A DNA stretch of 64,000 nt, taken from contig JANLHG010000020.1 of assembly GCA_024654575.1 (NCBI GenBank), positions 55,991 through 119,990 of the forward strand, in the 5' to 3' direction. The number at the start of each line of letters is the position of its first letter. Positions within the stretch are counted from its first letter, which is position 1. A program made the position numbers and the translations under genes. Source of the stretch: Patescibacteria group bacterium (lineage in GTDB: Bacteria > Patescibacteriota > Minisyncoccia > Phycocordibacterales > PALSA-1337). The notes under the pieces are model-generated. The model was given only the letters and a program-made list of their open reading frames with translations, ran no database searches and was not told the DNA's origin. Positions 7,791-38,313 of this stretch are shown here, piece by piece.

Positions 7791-8264
7791 TCAATTTATC
7801 GTTGATGGTCGCAACTGCCAATCTTTATACAGATATCTTTTAAATGATCCTGGAAAATAAGGTTTCAACCATAAAATAGCTTGATTATCAGCATCTCTTT
7901 CCATCTTTGTATTAAGAACGCCATCTTCTGTATCTTCAATTCTTCTAAACCCATGTCTTTTATATACATGTGCAACTTCGTGGGCAATAGCAAACGCTAT
8001 CCTTTTTTCACTTTTGGACCAAAGTGAATTAGATAATATAATTAATCCCCGCTTACCTTTAAGACGAAAATCATTTCTTGCTATATACTCTCCCCTATCT
8101 TTCTTATCTAGAGATATAAAAACACATTTTTCAATCACAAAATCAACTATATTCTCTGGTAGATACGATAAAGCTTTTGCTAAAGGGTTTATATTTTCCT
8201 CAGAAATGAAATCCTTGAAATACACACAGTCCATTTCATTAGTAACTTCTCTTTGTGTATACAT
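7791..8264 (-). CDS. ImmA/IrrE-family-like zinc metallopeptidase
   Basis: AIAHEVAHVYKRH (HExxH) followed by ...ERDADNQA; size 157 aa. Confidence 0.5.
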   Translation of the reverse strand: MYTQREVTNEMDCVYFKDFISEENINPLAKALSYLPENIVDFVIEKCVFISLDKKDRGEYIARNDFRLKGKRGLIILSNSLWSKSEKRIAFAIAHEVAHVYKRHGFRRIEDTEDGVLNTKMERDADNQAILWLKPYFPGSFKRYLYKDWQLRPSTIN

Positions 8265-8271
8265 AAAAGTA

Positions 8272-8469
8272 TTATAGCGTATTTAATTCATTTTTCTCTT
8301 TCATTAACCTAATCTCTCTTTTAAGTGCTATGCCTGTTAATTTGAGAAGTTTTACACCAATATCATTTATTGTCTTATCATCAAGTTTAGCTAAATATTC
8401 TTTTCCAAAATCTTTTCTCAATATTTCCTTTAATTTATTAAATGCTTTTGGGGATAGTTTAGTAGTCAT
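8272..8469 (-). CDS. hypothetical protein
   Basis: ORF 65 aa, overlaps next gene by 4 nt. Confidence 0.3.
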   Translation of the reverse strand: MTTKLSPKAFNKLKEILRKDFGKEYLAKLDDKTINDIGVKLLKLTGIALKREIRLMKEKNELNTL

Positions 8470-8774
8470 TTTTTAACTTTATTATGATATTGTAATACCT
8501 TTTCTGCTGGCGATAGGCCATCAAGAGCTTCGTGAGGAAAGTAATTCCAGGCATCGCTTACTAATTCAAGAATGTCGCTTAATTCTGAAGCATCTCCGCC
8601 TCTATCAAACATTGCCACAGCTTTCATCATGTCGTCATTATCTTCTTCAAAAAAAATGACATCTGCTATATCTTGCAAGCCAAAATCACTTTCAGTTTTC
8701 TTTAGCATTTCCACTAGTTCCTTTTCAATCTCTTTCCTTCTTTTTATAATTTGTTTTTTTGATTCAATTTGCAT
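8466..8774 (-). CDS. hypothetical acidic protein
   Basis: ORF 102 aa. Confidence 0.3.
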   Translation of the reverse strand: MQIESKKQIIKRRKEIEKELVEMLKKTESDFGLQDIADVIFFEEDNDDMMKAVAMFDRGGDASELSDILELVSDAWNYFPHEALDGLSPAEKVLQYHNKVKK

Positions 8775-9320: not shown

Positions 9321-10160
9321 TTACTTCCTAACATTTTCATCAAGTGAATGTCCTTGATTATCTTTCCAAGTATCCCAGCCGTTACAAATACCACCAATAA
9401 TTACATTTCCAGCAGAACTAGGGCTGGTAAATATGTAATCCTTAGTAAAGATATAAGAATTTTCGTCGTGATCTTTGAGAATACCGTCTTCAATCAACCT
9501 GTTTTTTAGTTGTTTACTAGAATTTCTTAAAAAAGACGGCTGTTCTTTTTTTCGAGCAAGCGAATTTTTATAAACTATAAATTCTTCTGTAGGAAGTAAT
9601 GTCCCATGCCCATCTGCACCCTTCAAGGTTACATATTTCATAGAATACATAACGCCACCAATTTGTTTTTTCGAATCTTCAAATACTAGATAGCCAAACA
9701 ATCCAGCCACAAGCTTGATATGTTCGAAACATTGAAAGGCGACTATCTTCTGTGCTTCAGAAAGCCTATTTTCTCTTGGTATTGCAGTATTAGAAATATC
9801 ATATCGATCTGCCTTCTTGGCAGTATCCACAGAAATACTTTCAAGATACTTTATAAGGGCACTGTCCAAACTACCAACGAATATAAAGGCAACATTCCAC
9901 TCATCTTCTTCTCTGTCAGCATCATGCGATATTAGTCTCCCAATAACATTTTCTGATTGGCCAATATATACTGATGGTCGTTCCTTTCCTTCACCGAATA
10001 AAAAATATAATCCAGGTTGTCCTACTTCTTCTCTAGCACGAAGTTCCGCAAGTTTTCCTCTTGGGGCAATAAACACCTTTCCAGTTCTTCCTTCCATTTC
10101 AATTAGCCGAAGTCCCTTTGGGTTATCATTCAGTAGAATTGTTGTTATTACTTGTGCCAT
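9321..10160 (-). CDS. GIY-YIG nuclease family protein with C-terminal uncharacterised domain
   Basis: GLYFLFGEGKERPSVYIGQSENVIGRLISH matches GIY-x(9-11)-YIG plus conserved Arg. Confidence 0.6.
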   Translation of the reverse strand: MAQVITTILLNDNPKGLRLIEMEGRTGKVFIAPRGKLAELRAREEVGQPGLYFLFGEGKERPSVYIGQSENVIGRLISHDADREEDEWNVAFIFVGSLDSALIKYLESISVDTAKKADRYDISNTAIPRENRLSEAQKIVAFQCFEHIKLVAGLFGYLVFEDSKKQIGGVMYSMKYVTLKGADGHGTLLPTEEFIVYKNSLARKKEQPSFLRNSSKQLKNRLIEDGILKDHDENSYIFTKDYIFTSPSSAGNVIIGGICNGWDTWKDNQGHSLDENVRK

Positions 10161-10203: not shown

Positions 10204-11043
10204 TTATTTTAATTTTTTTGCAATTTCGTATTCTTTTTTAGTAAGCTCTAAATTGCATTTTTTACATTTATATAAATCCGAAAAAGTTCTACTTGAACCA
10301 TATAAACTAGCAGCTTGTGGAAAAATGTCTGAATCTGATCCATCTAAAGAAAAGTCATATGCACCACAACGTGGACATTCTTCGCCAGTAATACTATACC
10401 CATAAGCAGAACTACGTGTATACATTGGAATAGCGAGACCGCCAAAAACCATTGTCTCCAGTGTATTTTTAATTGGTGTTATCTTTGTTTTGACTTCTTC
10501 AATTAAAACTTTCTCTAGTTCTTCTTCAGAGTATTTCTTTTTAGGTTTATTAGCTTTTATTAAATCCTTACCGAATATAGATATTGCTTGAGTAGATATT
10601 TTTTCCCATACTGTTCCTATTTTTTTAACTATATTTTCTCTGTCAGATAAAATACCAGCATCCGACTTATATCCATGAACAAAATGATTTCTAACCTTAT
10701 AAATATCAATTAAGACCTGCATCTCATCATCAGAAAAATCATTTTTGAACATTAATTTATATCTATCGAGGGTTTCTCTTATTCTAATAGTCTCAATATT
10801 CAATTCCTTTCCTTTTATAATTGCCACAAGAGAGTCATTCTCTTTGATTTTAGTATTTTCATAAACCAAAACTGGATTTTCATCATGTAGTTTAATTTTT
10901 AAAATTTTTTCTGTTACAATACAAAAAGAAACCACTATTTCTGGCAAGTCCTCTTGTTTGGTTGGAACATCAAAGAGATACTCGCCGACAACTGAATAGA
11001 GTCTAAGAAGATATTTATAATTTTTATCATTTTTTTCTTTCAT
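10204..11043 (-). CDS. putative HEPN-domain protein with C-terminal zinc ribbon
   Basis: IDIYKVRNHFVHGY (R-x4-H-x-Y HEPN-like motif); C-terminal CPRCG...CKKCN. Confidence 0.45.
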   Translation of the reverse strand: MKEKNDKNYKYLLRLYSVVGEYLFDVPTKQEDLPEIVVSFCIVTEKILKIKLHDENPVLVYENTKIKENDSLVAIIKGKELNIETIRIRETLDRYKLMFKNDFSDDEMQVLIDIYKVRNHFVHGYKSDAGILSDRENIVKKIGTVWEKISTQAISIFGKDLIKANKPKKKYSEEELEKVLIEEVKTKITPIKNTLETMVFGGLAIPMYTRSSAYGYSITGEECPRCGAYDFSLDGSDSDIFPQAASLYGSSRTFSDLYKCKKCNLELTKKEYEIAKKLK

Positions 11044-11048
11044 AATTT

Positions 11049-11981
11049 TTATGAAGGCTTTTTTTCTGATGTATCGATTTTCATATTCTCTATTTTCTCA
11101 GGACCAACATCTTGAATCTTTGCTTCCTCCTTTTTGGTTGGGAGAATCTTATCTATAATTTCAAATATCAATTCTGTAGGTACAACCCTTACTAATCCTG
11201 TTTGTTCAGTAAATACTATCCGTGGTTCTCCTGTCTGTTGGCTAATAGCAATATCAGAGTAGGTTTCTCCAGAACTAATAACTCCAATTAATCCTGCCGA
11301 AGAATTACTTTGAGTGCCTGTAATCGCCACTACCTCAGGCTTGTTGATAACAGGACCTCCACTATTTCCAGGATAAGCAGAGGCATCTATATAAAAGAAA
11401 CAATCTTCTAATACTTCTTCATCAACTCTAGCTATTATCCCTTGTCTCACAATTACGAAATTTCTTGTCTTGCCACTTATGCGCATCGGAAATCCAAGCA
11501 CAAACAATCCATCTCCAGTTGAAATATTTTCTATTGAGAAATCTTTAGCATAAAATATACTGTCCTCTCTAAAAAAGTAAAAATTTATTTTTGCATCATT
11601 AATTGCTACAGCATTAATAGGAAGAACAGCTAAATCAACTTTTTCACTCTCATGCATAAGCCAAAGAGGACTTTTGTCCTCTTTTAATAAAGGTACTTTA
11701 AAGTAATGACTTTTACTATCTAGGGTATTAAACCTAAAAAAGACTTCCTTTAATAGCTCTTTTGTTTTTGGATTTTGGAAAACATGTCTATTTGTTACAA
11801 CAAATAATTTAAAAAGGGGTTGTTTTTGATCATTTTCTCCCACTTTCTTACCAACTAAAAATCCTGTTGCAATTGAAATTTTACTTAATACTCCAGTAGT
11901 GTCTTTATTTTCTACCTCAATTGATACAACTGAATTTAAATATTGTGGTGGTATTAGAGACATAATTTCTATTCCTCCCAA
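11049..11981 (-). CDS. trypsin-like (S1 family) serine protease
   Basis: catalytic triad context TNRHV (His), DLAVL (Asp), GNSGGPV (Ser). Confidence 0.7.
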   Translation of the reverse strand: MGGIEIMSLIPPQYLNSVVSIEVENKDTTGVLSKISIATGFLVGKKVGENDQKQPLFKLFVVTNRHVFQNPKTKELLKEVFFRFNTLDSKSHYFKVPLLKEDKSPLWLMHESEKVDLAVLPINAVAINDAKINFYFFREDSIFYAKDFSIENISTGDGLFVLGFPMRISGKTRNFVIVRQGIIARVDEEVLEDCFFYIDASAYPGNSGGPVINKPEVVAITGTQSNSSAGLIGVISSGETYSDIAISQQTGEPRIVFTEQTGLVRVVPTELIFEIIDKILPTKKEEAKIQDVGPEKIENMKIDTSEKKPS

Positions 11982-14482
11982 AGTTTAGCTAGGGTGTCTT
12001 TAGTCTTTTGTTCATAAATCTCGATCAGTTTTTTATTACCTTCGACGAGAGTACGCTCCGATTCAATACGTTCCACGATTTGTTTTTGAATTCCGAGAGG
12101 TGGAAGAGGAATTTCAAAGCTAGAAACTTGGGCCAAAGATAAATTACTTTGAGCAACGCCCACTTTCAAACCAAGAATTTGGTTCTGAATCATATCTGAT
12201 CTTAAAACTTGTTCGAGGTATTTTGAATTTAGTTCTTTTTTTGGTGAAATTATTGCAAGTGCTTGGTTAGTATTGGCAGGTAATACAGAAGAATCTACCA
12301 AAGCAACTCGTCCAAGAGCGCCGGCGATTGAAAACAAGACATCATTTTCTTCCAACTGAGATCGTTTTAGAGATTCGTTACATTTCTGATTTATATGGGC
12401 AAATTTCTTCTTGATAAAATATCCATCATTATCAATTGATTCTATTTTAATAAAGTTAATTCCACTTTCTTGAAACTCAAATCCATTTGTGGTGGGAGTT
12501 GTCCCTTTTGTTACTCTGTTTGATACTTCTTCTAATTTCACCTTCTTCCACGAAGGATCAATTACTATGATTGGCTTCCAACTTGAAATGATTTGCTTAG
12601 CGCCGGCGATGATGTTTTGGTAGCCGTCTAGTTCAGCGACAATTTGCTGTTGGATTTCTAATGGCGGAATAGGAATTTTTTGATTTGCAATAGTTACATG
12701 CCCTAAATGCTTTTGAATCCCGCCCTTCATTTGCTGTTGTAATAAACCTTGGAATAAATCACTCTCCAGAATATTAAAGAGATATTTTTGATCCACCTTG
12801 TTTTTATCAAAAGAAATTCTAAATAAATTATTGCTTAATATCCCTGGAACAGCCATAAAAGCCCTGCCTGGTGTGCCGGTATTTGCCATAACAAGGTCTT
12901 CAACAGTGACTTCCTTGGTTGCATATATATCTTTAACATAAATTGATTTATCCTCGCCTTTAAAATCTTGTATATATAAATACCTTTTGTAACCACTTCT
13001 AAATTCATTTAACTGCTTTTCTTTAGGTATTTGTACACCCTGAGTAAATTCACAAACATCCCCCAACCTAACTATTGGCCATTTGGCATTGGTGTAATCT
13101 GTTGCTATGCGATAGCGATCTCCAGAAAGATTGTAGTCGCCAGATTCAGTAATCTTTTCTTTTTTCACTAACCAAGCAAAAAAACTACCGTCAGATATAA
13201 GTTGATTTTTTGTTCCCGTTTCAATAGCAATTTTCTGTGCTTTAAGAACATCAAGAGCTGCACCATCATCAGTTAAATCATTTATATGACTATCAGGAAG
13301 TGGTCGTCGACGAGCACCTAAATCAAAACCATCACTTTCAACTTTAATAAATAATATCTCATCTGTTTTCTTTGCTATCTCATTATCAAAAAATAGAATA
13401 CTGGTCTTTACTCCTGCATAAGGATTAAATACACCTTGTGGTAAAGAGACAACAGCATAGAGTCCATCTTCTACAAGATTCTTACGAAGTTGCTTATGTG
13501 CTGTACCGGACTGAAAAATAATACCTTCGGGAACAATAATACCTGCTCGGCCTTGAGGCCTTAGATGGTTCATTATGTAATCCACAAATAACACTTCGGA
13601 CCGGCTAGACTGAATACTAAACTTACTATGGGTGCTAACCCCGCCTTTTGGCGACATAAATGGGGGGTTGGCGAGAATTACAGAGAATTTGTCGCCCCAA
13701 CGTTCATCCATAGAGAGCGTGTCATATTGAAATATTTTTGGATTCTTGAATTGGTGTAGATACATATTGACTTGAGCTATACGGACCATTCCAGGGTCTA
13801 TGTCGTAGCCTTCAAAATTACCCATCAAGTTTTTACGCTGATCAGGGGTCAGAGGTTTTTCCTTTTTCTTTGGATCATTTTTACCGTCGTGTTGCTCGAG
13901 TATGTGTTTGTAGGCACTCACCAAGAATCCTCCAGTACCGCAGGCAGGGTCCAATACTTTGTCTTCCTGTGTCGGATCTACTACATCCACCATAAAATCA
14001 ATAATATGGCGTGGGGTGCGGAATTGTCCCGCATCGCCTTGAGATGACATGATAGAGAGCAGATATTCGTAGGCATTACCCAATTCTTCGGGGTGTGAAT
14101 AATCAAAGTAATTAATTTCCTTCAAAAATAAGCCTAGCACTTCAGGGCTTCGATACGGCAAAAATGCGGACTTAAAAATCTCACGAAAAAGTTGTGGAAG
14201 TTGTTTTGATTCAGAAAACTTTATAAGGGCTTCACTATAGATATTCATTCGCTCTTGATTGCCTATACGAGTATCAGCAAGACGAGTCCACGCATACTGC
14301 TCCAAGTCGCCTACAAAGAACGAGGGATCTCCACCCTGCTTAATCGCAGACTGGTCCATATCATCCATAAACTTGTAGATAAGAGCATTGGTGATCTGAT
14401 CTATTTGAGAAGTTGGATTTGGGACCACGCCGACAAGGACTTGGCGAGCGGCGTCTATATGTCTTTTTGTTTCGGTGTTCAT
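11969..14482 (-). CDS. hsdM/hsdS: Type I restriction-modification fused HsdM (N6-adenine MTase) - HsdS (specificity, two TRDs) polypeptide
   Basis: DPACGTGGFL (motif I), NPPF (motif IV); C-terminal half has two target-recognition domains with conserved spacers IPIPPLEIQQQIV and IPLPPLGIQKQIV; single 837-aa ORF. Confidence 0.85.
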   Translation of the reverse strand: MNTETKRHIDAARQVLVGVVPNPTSQIDQITNALIYKFMDDMDQSAIKQGGDPSFFVGDLEQYAWTRLADTRIGNQERMNIYSEALIKFSESKQLPQLFREIFKSAFLPYRSPEVLGLFLKEINYFDYSHPEELGNAYEYLLSIMSSQGDAGQFRTPRHIIDFMVDVVDPTQEDKVLDPACGTGGFLVSAYKHILEQHDGKNDPKKKEKPLTPDQRKNLMGNFEGYDIDPGMVRIAQVNMYLHQFKNPKIFQYDTLSMDERWGDKFSVILANPPFMSPKGGVSTHSKFSIQSSRSEVLFVDYIMNHLRPQGRAGIIVPEGIIFQSGTAHKQLRKNLVEDGLYAVVSLPQGVFNPYAGVKTSILFFDNEIAKKTDEILFIKVESDGFDLGARRRPLPDSHINDLTDDGAALDVLKAQKIAIETGTKNQLISDGSFFAWLVKKEKITESGDYNLSGDRYRIATDYTNAKWPIVRLGDVCEFTQGVQIPKEKQLNEFRSGYKRYLYIQDFKGEDKSIYVKDIYATKEVTVEDLVMANTGTPGRAFMAVPGILSNNLFRISFDKNKVDQKYLFNILESDLFQGLLQQQMKGGIQKHLGHVTIANQKIPIPPLEIQQQIVAELDGYQNIIAGAKQIISSWKPIIVIDPSWKKVKLEEVSNRVTKGTTPTTNGFEFQESGINFIKIESIDNDGYFIKKKFAHINQKCNESLKRSQLEENDVLFSIAGALGRVALVDSSVLPANTNQALAIISPKKELNSKYLEQVLRSDMIQNQILGLKVGVAQSNLSLAQVSSFEIPLPPLGIQKQIVERIESERTLVEGNKKLIEIYEQKTKDTLAKLWEE

Positions 14483-14486
14483 AGTT

Positions 14487-14936
14487 TTACATTATTCCTT
14501 TAAATTGTTCTTTTGTCTGTCCTATACTTTCACTGGCATTTTTCCCATCAGCCGAATATAATTCCTTCCAATCATATTCTCTAAAATTACTTTTCTTTTT
14601 CCACGATGAATATTCGTCATAAGAAATAGGGGGTTGTGGAGAATTACCATTTAGGCTAATCAGTGGAGTTTCTGGTTCAATCTTTTTAAGATACGCTACC
14701 GCATCTTCTCTTTTTGAAAAATGATTTATTGTAAAAAGAGGGTAACGATTACAATTCCTATATGTTGCAACGCACCATATAAAATCAGTTGGCGGTTGCT
14801 CATGATAGATCTTTGTCCAAACGGCTCCATCAGCGTTAGGTTCTATTTCAACTGTCCCTTTACACAAATACAAGACAAAAATTCTGTCATCAAAATAATT
14901 CTGTCCTTGAAATTCAATTGTGTTTAGGTGATTCAT
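14487..14936 (-). CDS. hypothetical protein inserted between hsdR and hsdMS
   Basis: ORF 149 aa, 2-4 nt spacing to neighbours. Confidence 0.4.
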   Translation of the reverse strand: MNHLNTIEFQGQNYFDDRIFVLYLCKGTVEIEPNADGAVWTKIYHEQPPTDFIWCVATYRNCNRYPLFTINHFSKREDAVAYLKKIEPETPLISLNGNSPQPPISYDEYSSWKKKSNFREYDWKELYSADGKNASESIGQTKEQFKGIM

Positions 14937-14939
14937 ATT

Positions 14940-17507
14940 TTAATTCATAAAAGTGTTAAGAGACACATAATCTTTTACATATGTAGGGACTGTAGTCTTG
15001 AAGCCATTGAGTCTCTGATATTCTTCGAAATCAAATGAGGCGCAAAAATTAAGCTGTGCTAATTGCTTAGTCTCAATAATCTCTCGAACTTGCGGATCTA
15101 CTATATATGCTTTGAAAAAGCTTTTAACTGGCGCATAGTGCTCTTGATCTACTGTATTTACTTCCGTGAATTTACTCCATTCTGATTCAAGTAACTCATC
15201 TTTGGATTCAAAATTACTTTTCTGTCCAAAAGCGACCTGTAGAAATTCACGAATAGTAATGCGACGATCAACATTAAAAGTTTTTCTAATTCCTTGTAGA
15301 TTAAGAAAGTGATTTGGTTTGTCGAAAATGTTGGTTTTAGTATAGTCTTCAGCTGCTGCTACGTCTCCATTATTCCAAAGGTTCTTTAACGTTTCGTTGG
15401 CAAGCACATCTTCTTCTACAGCACGCTTGAAGCCTTCGCGGTCAATACGCATACCTTCGGAGCCAATATGTTTTTCTGAAATTGTAGCAAGCTCATCCTG
15501 TGTAGCTAAATCTATTGGGCCTTTGAAAATATTAGTGCCATCTTCGTCAACGAATATATCTGAACCACCGGAATCTTTACCAGTTGTTGTATCAGTTTCT
15601 TTTATCTTCTTAATCTTCGGAAGTTTAATCTTTTCGTCATATTTAAATTCATTTTCAAAATATTCACAAGTAGCAAAAAAATCAAAGAATTTGAAATGTT
15701 CTTTATGTTTTGTGATAGTTTCTTTTGTTGCATAATCAATATATTCAAATTGATATTTTCTTGTGCCTCTTCCTTTAATTTGCACAAACTCCGCAGGGCT
15801 AAACACTGGACGCATCAGTGCTAAGTTTAAAATATCTTGACAGTCATAACCTGTAGTCATCATTCCAACAGTAACCGCTATGCGACTTTTACTAGAATCA
15901 TAACCCTCAGGACTTTTAACTTTGCCATTAAGCATATTATTAGAGAAGTTAATGGTCATTTGTTGAGCATTTTGGACCAAAGAAGTCACTTGCACGGCAA
16001 AATTTGATTCACTGTATTGTTCTGGCCATTTTTCAAAAGCCAGTTTGTTTAATATATTAGTTATTCTTGAAGCATGCTTTTGAGACACACAGAAAACAAT
16101 TGATTTTCCAAACAAGTCCAAATTATATTTTTTAGCAACAGGATCAAAGAGTCCGTTATCTATAAACGCTTTACACATTGCGATATTAGTTTCTTCGTTA
16201 AAGAATTTTCTTTCGTAATGACGTTCATTAAACACTTCGTTGATTGTCTCTCCTTGCTCTGTGGTGGAATGGACCGCATAACCATCTTCTGAGAGAAGTT
16301 CTGTGGTAATATCTGTGCGAGCGTCTACTACTATAGGATTTATAAGAAAACCATCTTTAACACCTGAAAGTAAATCATAGCTGAATGTTGGTTTACCTGA
16401 CTCGCATCCGAATGTCTTATATGTATCTAATAACTGTCTTCGTTCAAACTCTCTCTGTGTATCCGCACCTTCGCCATCAAATCCTTTGAGATAGTTTTTT
16501 GGCGTTGCGGTAAGTCCTAATTTATAGCCCACAAAGTATTCAAATACCGCACGACTGTTGCCACCAATGGACCTATGACTTTCATCACTGATAGTCAATT
16601 CAAAATCTGTAGGCGAAAATTCTTTTTTATACCTATCACCCGCAAGAAATGTCTGAATAGTAGAAACCACAATTTGAGCATTACGCCATGAATCACGGCT
16701 ATCTTTGTAGATAACACTAGTGTAATCCTTTCCTAAATATTGTTTGAAAGCTTTTTGTGCTTGTTCCTCAAGCTCTATGCGATCGACTAGAAATAGGATA
16801 CGACGAGCATTACCTGATTTAAGAAATAATTTTATGACTGCGGCAGAAATAAGCGTTTTACCAGTCCCAGTAGCCATTTCAAATAAGAATCTATTTTTAT
16901 TTTCAAATGCAGAAGATTGTAAACTTTTAATTGCCCCAACTTGATATGGACGCAATTGTTTAAGGTTATTATTATGTAGAAATTCTCGTTTCTTTGATTC
17001 GTCTTTAAAATCAGGATCATTAGCATAGCTAGGCATTTGCGATTCAATAATATAGTTTTCGTCTACTTTTGTACTAGCTAGTTCTGAAGGATTAGGAATA
17101 TATTTTTCATATTGTGTAATAGATTCTTGTGTTGGAAAACGGGAAATAGTATCAGGATTGCCATGTTTTGTATCCCATAAATAATGAATGTTGCCATTGG
17201 ATAATATAACGAATCGAGCATTTACAGTACGAGCATAATTTTTAGCTTGATCTTTAGCCGAAAGTGGATCGATCGATTCTTTCTTTGCCTCTACTACAAC
17301 AAGAGCCCTGCCGTCTTTATCTAAAAGAAGAAAATCAATAAATCCGTGCGTCTCTTGTTCAAAGTCGTCTCCAAGTTCTGAATACTTTACTCCTGGCTCA
17401 AGTTCAATATTAGCTTTTCCATTTTTATCATCTTCAAAACGCCATCCTGATTCTTCAAGCAGTTTGTTTATCTTAATACGAGCCGATGCTTCTTTTAATT
17501 TCATCAT
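14940..17507 (-). CDS. hsdR: Type I restriction enzyme R subunit (PD-(D/E)xK nuclease + SF2 helicase)
   Basis: N-terminal FIDFLLLD...VVVEAK nuclease motif; MATGTGKT Walker A; DESH; TATP. Confidence 0.85.
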   Translation of the reverse strand: MMKLKEASARIKINKLLEESGWRFEDDKNGKANIELEPGVKYSELGDDFEQETHGFIDFLLLDKDGRALVVVEAKKESIDPLSAKDQAKNYARTVNARFVILSNGNIHYLWDTKHGNPDTISRFPTQESITQYEKYIPNPSELASTKVDENYIIESQMPSYANDPDFKDESKKREFLHNNNLKQLRPYQVGAIKSLQSSAFENKNRFLFEMATGTGKTLISAAVIKLFLKSGNARRILFLVDRIELEEQAQKAFKQYLGKDYTSVIYKDSRDSWRNAQIVVSTIQTFLAGDRYKKEFSPTDFELTISDESHRSIGGNSRAVFEYFVGYKLGLTATPKNYLKGFDGEGADTQREFERRQLLDTYKTFGCESGKPTFSYDLLSGVKDGFLINPIVVDARTDITTELLSEDGYAVHSTTEQGETINEVFNERHYERKFFNEETNIAMCKAFIDNGLFDPVAKKYNLDLFGKSIVFCVSQKHASRITNILNKLAFEKWPEQYSESNFAVQVTSLVQNAQQMTINFSNNMLNGKVKSPEGYDSSKSRIAVTVGMMTTGYDCQDILNLALMRPVFSPAEFVQIKGRGTRKYQFEYIDYATKETITKHKEHFKFFDFFATCEYFENEFKYDEKIKLPKIKKIKETDTTTGKDSGGSDIFVDEDGTNIFKGPIDLATQDELATISEKHIGSEGMRIDREGFKRAVEEDVLANETLKNLWNNGDVAAAEDYTKTNIFDKPNHFLNLQGIRKTFNVDRRITIREFLQVAFGQKSNFESKDELLESEWSKFTEVNTVDQEHYAPVKSFFKAYIVDPQVREIIETKQLAQLNFCASFDFEEYQRLNGFKTTVPTYVKDYVSLNTFMN

Positions 17508-38075: not shown

Positions 38076-38313
38076 TGGGCAGAGGAAGTAACACAAGTGA
38101 TTAGGATCTGTGATGAAATTGGTAGACATAATGATTTATCATATCATCGCCGTACAAGCATGCGAGTTCGAATCTCGCCAGATCCACAATTACTTCCTCT
38201 ATCCACTCTTCAAATTTTATAAAGAACGAAAAATTACACCATTTGGGGTGTGAACTAATCTTTTTATTAGAATAGAATCACGTTTCATTTTTATCACTAT
38301 TTTAAACAAACCG
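38076..38313 (+). repeat. Repeated tRNA cassette copy 2 (IRs at 38076-38091 and 38190-38205 plus conserved tail)
   Basis: see 18223-18476. Confidence 0.55.
38104..38186 (+). tRNA. tRNA-like gene (83 nt) with type II (Leu-like) architecture: 3-bp D stem, D-loop AAATTGGTAGA, 14-nt variable region; anticodon loop UUAUCAU
   Basis: GGATCTG/CAGATCC acceptor, ATGAT-TTATCAT-ATCAT anticodon arm, GCGAG-TTCGAAT-CTCGC T arm; anticodon identity ambiguous. Confidence 0.5.

Follow-up and report, generated by a model that had tools for sequence, protein, structure and literature searches.

The serine protease gene and the HEPN and zinc-ribbon (HEPN-ZnR) gene which stand side by side at the 3' end of a Type I restriction-modification (RM) operon are best explained, with a probability of roughly two in three, as two independent single-gene cassettes of defence type, the HEPN-ZnR protein being a self-contained latent RNase from the RM operon. 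The genes are situated in the window, i.e. the whole analysed stretch of 64,000 nucleotides of DNA from a Patescibacteria group bacterium. The window is an ordinary defence-island mosaic and both genes are new CPR-specific members of already described kinds. On this explanation the protease has no dedicated regulatory role towards the HEPN protein, and the adjacency of the two genes appears to be a chance juxtaposition within this mosaic.

The RM operon is part of a tightly packed array of ten co-directional genes, which runs on the minus strand from 17507 down to 7791. The features of the array are the following.

14940..17507, minus strand: hsdR, the first gene of the array, Type I restriction subunit of 855 aa (Pfam ResIII 3e-38 and HSDR_N_2; PADLOC REase_I 1e-60)
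14487..14936, minus strand: orf149, 149 aa, between hsdR and hsdMS with spacers of 3 and 4 nt
11969..14482, minus strand: hsdM-hsdS fusion (hsdMS) of 837 aa, methyltransferase and two target-recognition domains (N6_Mtase 2e-55; Methylase_S 7e-35, matching in two stretches)
11049..11963, minus strand: serine protease of 304 aa, S1C-type, cytoplasmic, PADLOC PDC-S45 family, between hsdMS and the HEPN gene
11784-11786, 11634-11636 and 11361-11363, minus strand: H, D and S of the protease triad, respectively, from the translation
10204..11043, minus strand: HEPN and zinc-ribbon protein of 279 aa, predicted latent RNase
10564..11016, minus strand: HEPN domain of the 279-aa protein, residues ~10-160
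10675..10692, minus strand: RNHFVH, the R-N-x3-H catalytic motif, R118...H123, from the translation
10246..10380, minus strand: C-terminal 4-Cys zinc ribbon, CPRC...CKKC, from the translation, with a hypervariable insert between the knuckles
9321..10160, minus strand: PDC-S14-family gene with a C-terminal DUF4357 (PADLOC PDC-S14 3e-73; Pfam DUF4357 3e-19), next in the array, 43 nt downstream of the HEPN gene
downstream of the PDC-S14/DUF4357 gene, minus strand: array genes orf158, orf102 and orf65
7791-8264, minus strand: HExxH peptidase-like gene of 157 aa, the last of the array

Both reading frames reported in the first-pass annotation were recovered on the minus strand, at 10204-11043 (279 aa) and at 11049-11981 (310 aa when read from the TTG at 11981). 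The start of the protease was assigned to the ATG at 11963 (304 aa) from the alignment of its homologs, including the 90% identical P0114. From hsdR down to the 279-aa gene, the spacers were 3–5 nt long. Those on both sides of the protease, hsdMS/protease and protease/279-aa gene, were 5 nt each, with the same stop-AAATT-ATG arrangement at both junctions. The best minus-strand promoter-like site was located near hsdR at 17548-17519 by a scan whose counts do not exceed chance. No minus-strand terminator-like site was detected between 17.5 and 7.8 kb, where the scan counts did not depart from those of shuffled sequence and are only weakly informative. A split of the array by internal promoters or terminators was considered and rejected on the same, weakly informative ground that the counts did not differ from shuffled sequence. 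The HEPN gene is probably co-transcribed and translationally coupled with the hsdR-hsdMS cassette, and the protease and HEPN genes are probably co-expressed in the window. In the case of orf149, no Pfam or PADLOC match was obtained, and the gene was missing from all the fetched loci, including the otherwise homologous cassette of L043.

The predicted structure of the 279-aa protein consists of an all-helical HEPN part plus the zinc ribbon, and the HEPN part has the four-helix up-and-down bundle fold of the HEPN superfamily. Among 160 full-length members of the family, R118 was conserved in 159, N119 in 152 and H123 in all 160, therefore RNHFVH is no chance match; E45 and K49 were each conserved in 159 members. 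The zinc-ribbon cysteines C223 and C226 were retained in 160, C260 in 158 and C263 in 157 of the 160 members, and the ribbon gave weak Zn_ribbon matches in Pfam. The insert of the zinc ribbon and the linker preceding it (residues 190-221) both had a consensus frequency of 0.20, their lengths varying across the family from 4 to 40 and from 22 to 57 residues, respectively, and both received low pLDDT in the structure model. The HEPN fold, the R-x4-H motif and the zinc ribbon, all of which had been proposed from the letters of the window, were thus borne out, the motif and the ribbon being kept in the homologs as well. The best structural matches were the HepT toxins of HEPN-MNT pairs, with SO_3166 (PDB 5yep) at the top. 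The window protein shares 10–12% identity with HepT, in which neither its additional Lys-rich helix nor its zinc ribbon is present.

A search of the PDB by sequence with the HEPN profile gave only insignificant matches to zinc-ribbon ribosomal proteins; the fold assignment needed a fold search. The 279-aa protein matches a protein of a Patescibacteria (CPR) MAG with 100% identity. The NCBI name of the latter, "rod shape-determining protein", was rejected, as it originates from a sub-threshold MreB_Mbl match of 20 bits against a cutoff of 27.

The HEPN family is patchy and small, forming 83 clusters at 50% identity in an exhaustive profile search of 1.84 billion representative proteins, and is apparently CPR-restricted. 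No member of the family was found in the scans of viral contigs. A phage or prophage origin was rejected, since the viral contigs lacked the HEPN family and held only distant S1 proteases (27–40% identical).

The 279-aa protein matched the PADLOC models DUF3644 and HEC-08 at 4e-7 and 4e-5, respectively, with only the HEPN region covered, and no match to the Pfam-A DUF3644 model was obtained at E ≤ 0.1. The family profile reached P0300, a full-length HEC-08 protein (7e-66) with DUF3644 (9e-34), at E 8e-4 in the library of 1.84 billion proteins. The hhalign comparison of the family with P0300 resulted in 92.8% probability and E 4e-7 over 174 columns, the RNxxxH motifs being aligned. The similarity to HEC-08 is remote, about 23% identity, and detectable only along the HEPN part and the helix that comes after it. 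Judged from these alignments, the CPR HEPN family is a remote relative of HEC-08/DUF3644 with the same architecture and not a scored member.

HEC-08 is an experimentally validated HEPN and zinc-ribbon defence protein, the defence of which is lost on mutation of the motif histidine (H128 mutant), and SO_3166 (5yep) is its best structural match as well (Payne et al. 2024, bioRxiv 10.1101/2024.01.29.577857). Both HEC-08 and the window protein are single proteins which carry a HEPN domain at the N-terminus, of the DUF3644 type in HEC-08 and remotely related to that type in the window protein, and a zinc-ribbon-like region at the C-terminus; both are embedded in another defence system, and they share reciprocal matches and the same structural match. 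They differ in length (~360 aa and 279 aa, respectively) and in the C-terminal region, where HEC-08 has several zinc-finger-like domains and the window protein one 4-Cys ribbon with the hypervariable insert. HEC-08 is Hachiman-embedded, whereas the window protein lies within, or is attached to, RM systems of CPR bacteria. A link with R-M operons has been reported for at least 16 clades of HEPN domains (Anantharaman et al. 2013, PMC3710099), among them the ZnR-fused, DUF3644-overlapping EC042_2821 family, and PrrC-like backup roles were proposed there for RM-linked HEPN clades in general. The window protein resembles the EC042_2821/DUF3644 clade in its HEPN with the R-x4-6-H motif, its ZnR fusion and its R-M operon setting, but lacks the wHTH and REase domains to which that clade is also fused. 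With these clades on record and HEC-08 validated, the first-pass view of PrrC as the only well-known HEPN protein embedded in RM loci is outdated.

The neighbourhoods of the HEPN gene were compared in 37 loci, 34 of which came from genome and metagenome collections and 3 were added for the closest relative. RM genes were located within 4 kb in about 10 of the 22 informative loci (at least 2 kb of flank, window included), which is indicative only, as a raw count without a matched background; the RM kinds were Type I, Type ISP and Type II/III-like. In L043 the HEPN gene comes directly after hsdMS, in L021 and L031 after the gene of a Type ISP enzyme, in L026 after an HsdR-like gene and in L008 after that of a Dam-like D12 methyltransferase. 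In every such case the upstream RM gene was co-directional and either overlapped the HEPN gene or ended no more than 27 nt from it. DNA methyltransferases were also present within 4 kb of the homologs in L015, L005, L022 and L014. The commonest Pfam families in the 147 neighbour proteins, which were drawn from 30 non-redundant loci, were those of DNA methyltransferases and further RM domains (N6_N4_Mtase 4, N6_Mtase 4, D12 2, ResIII 3, Type_ISP_C 2, Methylase_S 2, IceA 1). The remaining half, approximately, of the informative loci had housekeeping or unannotated neighbours, such as LepA in L006 and FtsH in L007. All-against-all clustering of the neighbours revealed no conserved neighbour of any kind for the HEPN gene.

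The closest HEPN relative (P0002, 69% identical) is found in L043-45, where the gene order is hsdR, hsdMS, a 2-nt spacer and the HEPN gene, with the protease absent. The HsdR and HsdMS of L043 are 88% and 63% identical to those of the window, respectively. Two genes of the window have no counterpart in this cassette: orf149, which separates hsdR from hsdMS, and the protease, which separates hsdMS from the HEPN gene. The HEPN gene is the ancestral 3' companion of the hsdR-hsdMS cassette, and its linkage to RM is recurrent and its own. The RM link which had been ascribed to the protease and HEPN genes as a pair holds for the HEPN gene, the pair itself not being recurrent.

PrrC and RloC possess an N-terminal ABC-ATPase regulatory domain and a C-terminal nuclease, and PrrC is almost always RM-embedded. 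The window protein has in common with them the HEPN-superfamily RNase domain, the Type I RM locus and the idea of a latent RNase behind restriction. In contrast to them, its HEPN is N-terminal, its zinc ribbon is C-terminal, and no ATPase domain was detected in it by Pfam, PADLOC or the structure model. Because the defining ABC-ATPase domain is absent, the 279-aa protein does not belong to the PrrC/RloC family. A Type I RM linkage of the PrrC/RloC kind was found in the window and L043-45, whereas family-wide RM genes of several types accompany about half of the loci.

A masking of the PrrC kind, in which HsdMS or HsdR would bind and silence the HEPN-ZnR RNase until a phage anti-restriction protein releases it, is unlikely. 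The conservation of the hsdR-hsdMS-HEPN cassette between the window and L043-45 agrees with such masking, the 2-nt spacer of L043 suggesting translational coupling, as do the short spacing wherever the upstream gene is an RM gene and the nearby RM genes in about 10 of the 22 informative loci. An equal logic has been proposed for the RM-linked HEPN clades (PMC3710099). However, the RM partners are of unrelated types (Type I, Type ISP, Dam-like, N6_N4 methyltransferases), which argues against one specific interface, and the ABC-ATPase regulatory domain of the PrrC/RloC type is missing. Moreover, RM genes are out of reach in about half of the informative loci. The HEPN protein must therefore be controllable without an RM partner, probably by elements of its own and not by the RM complex.

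In the self-contained latent RNase favoured here, the HEPN-ZnR protein would dimerise and the two R-x4-H motifs would form a composite active site, by analogy with the characterised HEPN RNases. The most plausible candidate for sensing or autoinhibition is the zinc ribbon with its hypervariable loops. Upon phage infection, the RNase would cut cellular and/or phage RNA, leading to translation arrest, and might in this way back up restriction as a second defence line. What counts against this explanation is that some HEPN domains lack catalytic activity or have a role in RNA processing. CPR bacteria are not known to have tractable phage-host systems. The putative defence role is drawn from a part of the contexts, the LepA and FtsH neighbours being found elsewhere.

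These latter neighbours, which directly precede the homologs in L006 and L007, together with the HepT toxins as the best structural matches, are the evidence for a non-defence role, i.e. a housekeeping or stress RNase or the toxin of a toxin-antitoxin pair, whose adjacency to RM genes would reflect islands tolerating insertions. Such a role is quite improbable. No MNT antitoxin gene adjoined the HEPN gene in the window or its homologs in the neighbour clustering, and no other conserved partner was found there. The patchy distribution of 83 clusters is unlike that of a housekeeping gene, DNA methyltransferases and other RM domains are the most frequent neighbour families, and HEC-08, to which the family is closest among characterised proteins, acts in defence.

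If the latent-RNase explanation holds, a small, apparently CPR-restricted branch is added to the HEC-08/DUF3644 HEPN and zinc-ribbon defence RNases, a branch which in Patescibacteria accompanies several unrelated RM types at their 3' end. This would fit the reliance of CPR bacteria on RM-centred defence and the "guilt-by-embedding" pattern (Payne et al.). The protein would also be a compact candidate, with its 279 aa, for studying how stand-alone HEPN RNases stay silent, e.g. with the zinc-ribbon loops as a sensor. No new principle is involved, as RM-linked HEPN backup nucleases were proposed in 2013 and a close architectural analogue has been validated.

In the protease-gated model which goes back to the first-pass annotation, the protease would cleave the HEPN protein or its inhibitor and activate the RNase, the two genes constituting an abortive-infection module. 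This model is very improbable. The genes in the window are 5 nt apart, co-directional and free of a terminator-like site between them, the two long, hypervariable, low-confidence linkers of the HEPN protein would be accessible to a protease, and both families are known from RM or defence contexts. Nevertheless, the pairing was observed in this window only. Searches with the window's own proteins detected the protease in 0 of the 37 HEPN-homolog loci, and the HEPN gene was present in 0 of the 7 other distinct contexts of the protease (homologs 63–90% identical; 8 distinct contexts examined in a family with more than 1,100 members). The idea of a module thus failed the co-occurrence test, and the linkage is further contradicted by the sister cassette of L043-45, in which the HEPN gene follows hsdMS directly. 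The protease family is at least about 10-fold larger than the HEPN family (>1,131 matches vs 113; the exhaustive profile search gave 83 clusters at 50% identity for the HEPN family), unrelated genes follow the protease elsewhere, and PDC-S45 is listed in PADLOC as a single-gene candidate.

The other protease contexts were diverse: between FtsH and SmpB, after DnaJ, after ProRS, and among housekeeping genes. A Type III-like Res gene preceded the protease by 6 nt in one further context and an SLFN-type helicase by 12 nt in another, and the last was an island in which another SLFN-type helicase/S24 gene was accompanied by a Panacea-type antitoxin. The uncalled gap of 940 bp that follows the protease in L035/L037 contained no degraded HEPN remnant. 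Because the pair is unconserved and the closest HEPN relative resides in the same cassette without a protease, the protease looks like an insertion which parts hsdMS from the HEPN gene only in this lineage.

It is equally hard to credit that the inserted protease was co-opted in this lineage as a switch, which would cut one of the protein's two disordered, hypervariable linkers and free the RNase from an autoinhibitory zinc ribbon. If true, such a switch would amount to an undescribed kind of RM-embedded abortive-infection module, gated by a protease. At this locus, its positive support amounts to the adjacency and the exposed linkers.

Two further partners of the protease were considered and rejected. 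The orf102 gene adjoins the protease in L046/47, yet its family of more than 1,100 members also occurs beside RM systems without the protease. For orf149 and the 146–149-aa genes near other proteases, no similarity was found that would make them a shared module.

The protease has a chymotrypsin fold and the His-Asp-Ser triad, so the complete S1 serine protease recognised in the first pass stands. It matched PADLOC PDC-S45 over the full length at 1e-24 (residues 13-277 against 19-281 of 293). What defines the PDC families is the location of their genes inside BREX, DISARM or Type I RM systems (Payne et al., bioRxiv 10.1101/2024.01.29.577857). The window protease resembles the PDC founders in being situated inside a Type I RM system, with hsdMS on one side and the remaining array genes on the other. 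With PDC-S45 (the protease) and PDC-S14 (the gene after HEPN), two PDC families are present, and the window is a clear example of the PDC embedding pattern. The protease represents an existing PADLOC candidate family for putative single-gene phage defence. Unlike HtrA, Deg and DegQ, it has neither a PDZ domain nor a signal peptide. The CPR subfamily is unusually conserved, with a mean column identity of 71%, and its genes often follow housekeeping genes.

A 90% identical copy of the protease was found in a different island, in L038. The ORF and its leader of about 96 nt are bracketed there by a 31-nt direct repeat (94% identical) with a palindrome inside, and the leader ends with a degenerate copy, ~45 nt long, of the hsdMS 3' end. 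The simplest reading of this arrangement is that the protease gene, being no component of the HEPN system, is a mobile cassette which lacks a promoter and was formerly situated behind an hsdMS gene.

The protease and the HEPN gene were each usually found a few nucleotides 3' of an unrelated co-directional gene (protease loci L035, L038, L046, L085, L087 and L089; HEPN loci L002-L043). The protease was located 5-20 nt downstream of a DnaJ, ProRS, SLFN-type helicase or Res gene or of hsdMS, and the spacing of the HEPN gene behind RM genes ranged from a 4-nt overlap to a 27-nt gap. In their position, both genes behave like promoter-less hitch-hikers at the 3' ends of operons. In the case of the protease, a closely related copy was detected in L038, one of the fetched comparison loci:

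L038:5874-6910, protease copy with leader and repeats, 90% identical to the window protease; to be compared with window 11960-12010

The L038 protease and its leader of about 96 nt are flanked on both sides by a 31-nt direct repeat, the copies of which are 94% identical. The repeat has the sequence AA[G/A]AATGTAGCAAGAACAGTTCTTG[T/C]TAATT with a palindrome inside, and a degenerate 3' end of hsdMS is still present in the leader. The flanking repeats together with the hsdMS remnant suggest that the protease is a promoter-less mobile cassette which was formerly placed behind hsdMS. A distant S1 protease, 27% identical, was also determined in L049 and L050, IMG/VR contigs classed as viral, with HsdR-like and HsdM-like genes at a distance of about 1 kb. 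This is a hint that the proximity of trypsin-like proteases to Type I RM systems may not be confined to CPR.

Four further genes of the array were compared with Pfam, PADLOC or the fetched loci:

14487-14936, minus strand, orf149, a 149-aa ORF located between hsdR and hsdMS, separated from them by 3 and 4 nt
9321-10160, minus strand, PDC-S14/DUF4357 gene, directly after the HEPN gene
8466-8774, minus strand, orf102, 102 aa
7791-8264, minus strand, HExxH metallopeptidase-like gene, 157 aa, the last gene of the array

The PDC-S14/DUF4357 gene, with a strong PADLOC match to PDC-S14 (3e-73) and a C-terminal DUF4357 domain, is a third single-gene candidate within the array. Orf149 matched neither Pfam nor PADLOC, and no homolog of it was found in any of the fetched loci, including the sister cassette L043, which likewise lacks it. 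Orf149 is considered a defence candidate due to its embedding between hsdR and hsdMS ("guilt-by-embedding"). A CPR Type I RM locus observed in L096-L099 carries three uncharacterised genes (148, 209 and 169 aa) between hsdM and hsdS, and downstream of it are a gene with an NYN domain, a homolog of orf102 and, at a greater distance, a bAvd gene, an accessory of diversity-generating retroelements.

The Pfam search with the orf102 protein gave no match. More than 1,100 homologs with 72-86% identity were determined in many CPR lineages. In L046/47 the gene is situated directly 3' of the protease, whereas in L092-95 it follows a C5-MTase/HATPase_c_3 operon and in L096-99 the HsdM...HsdS/NYN locus. 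Orf102 is a further small CPR gene associated with RM islands. Together with orf65, another small ORF, it precedes the HExxH gene, the product of which resulted in weak Pfam matches to M48, M78/IrrE and SprT and weak PADLOC matches to CapP (2e-6), Lit and RmrA.

The NCBI name of the HEPN protein P0001 (window 10204-11043), "rod shape-determining protein", was rejected as a misannotation, since its basis is an MreB_Mbl match at residues 134-197 which scored 20.3 bits, below the cutoff of 27. One tRNA call in the window was also unusual:

38104-38187, plus strand, tRNA-Asp with anticodon ATC, ARAGORN call, 84 nt

The usual anticodon of Asp tRNAs is GTC. The call may be erroneous, or the tRNA may contain an intron or be atypical.
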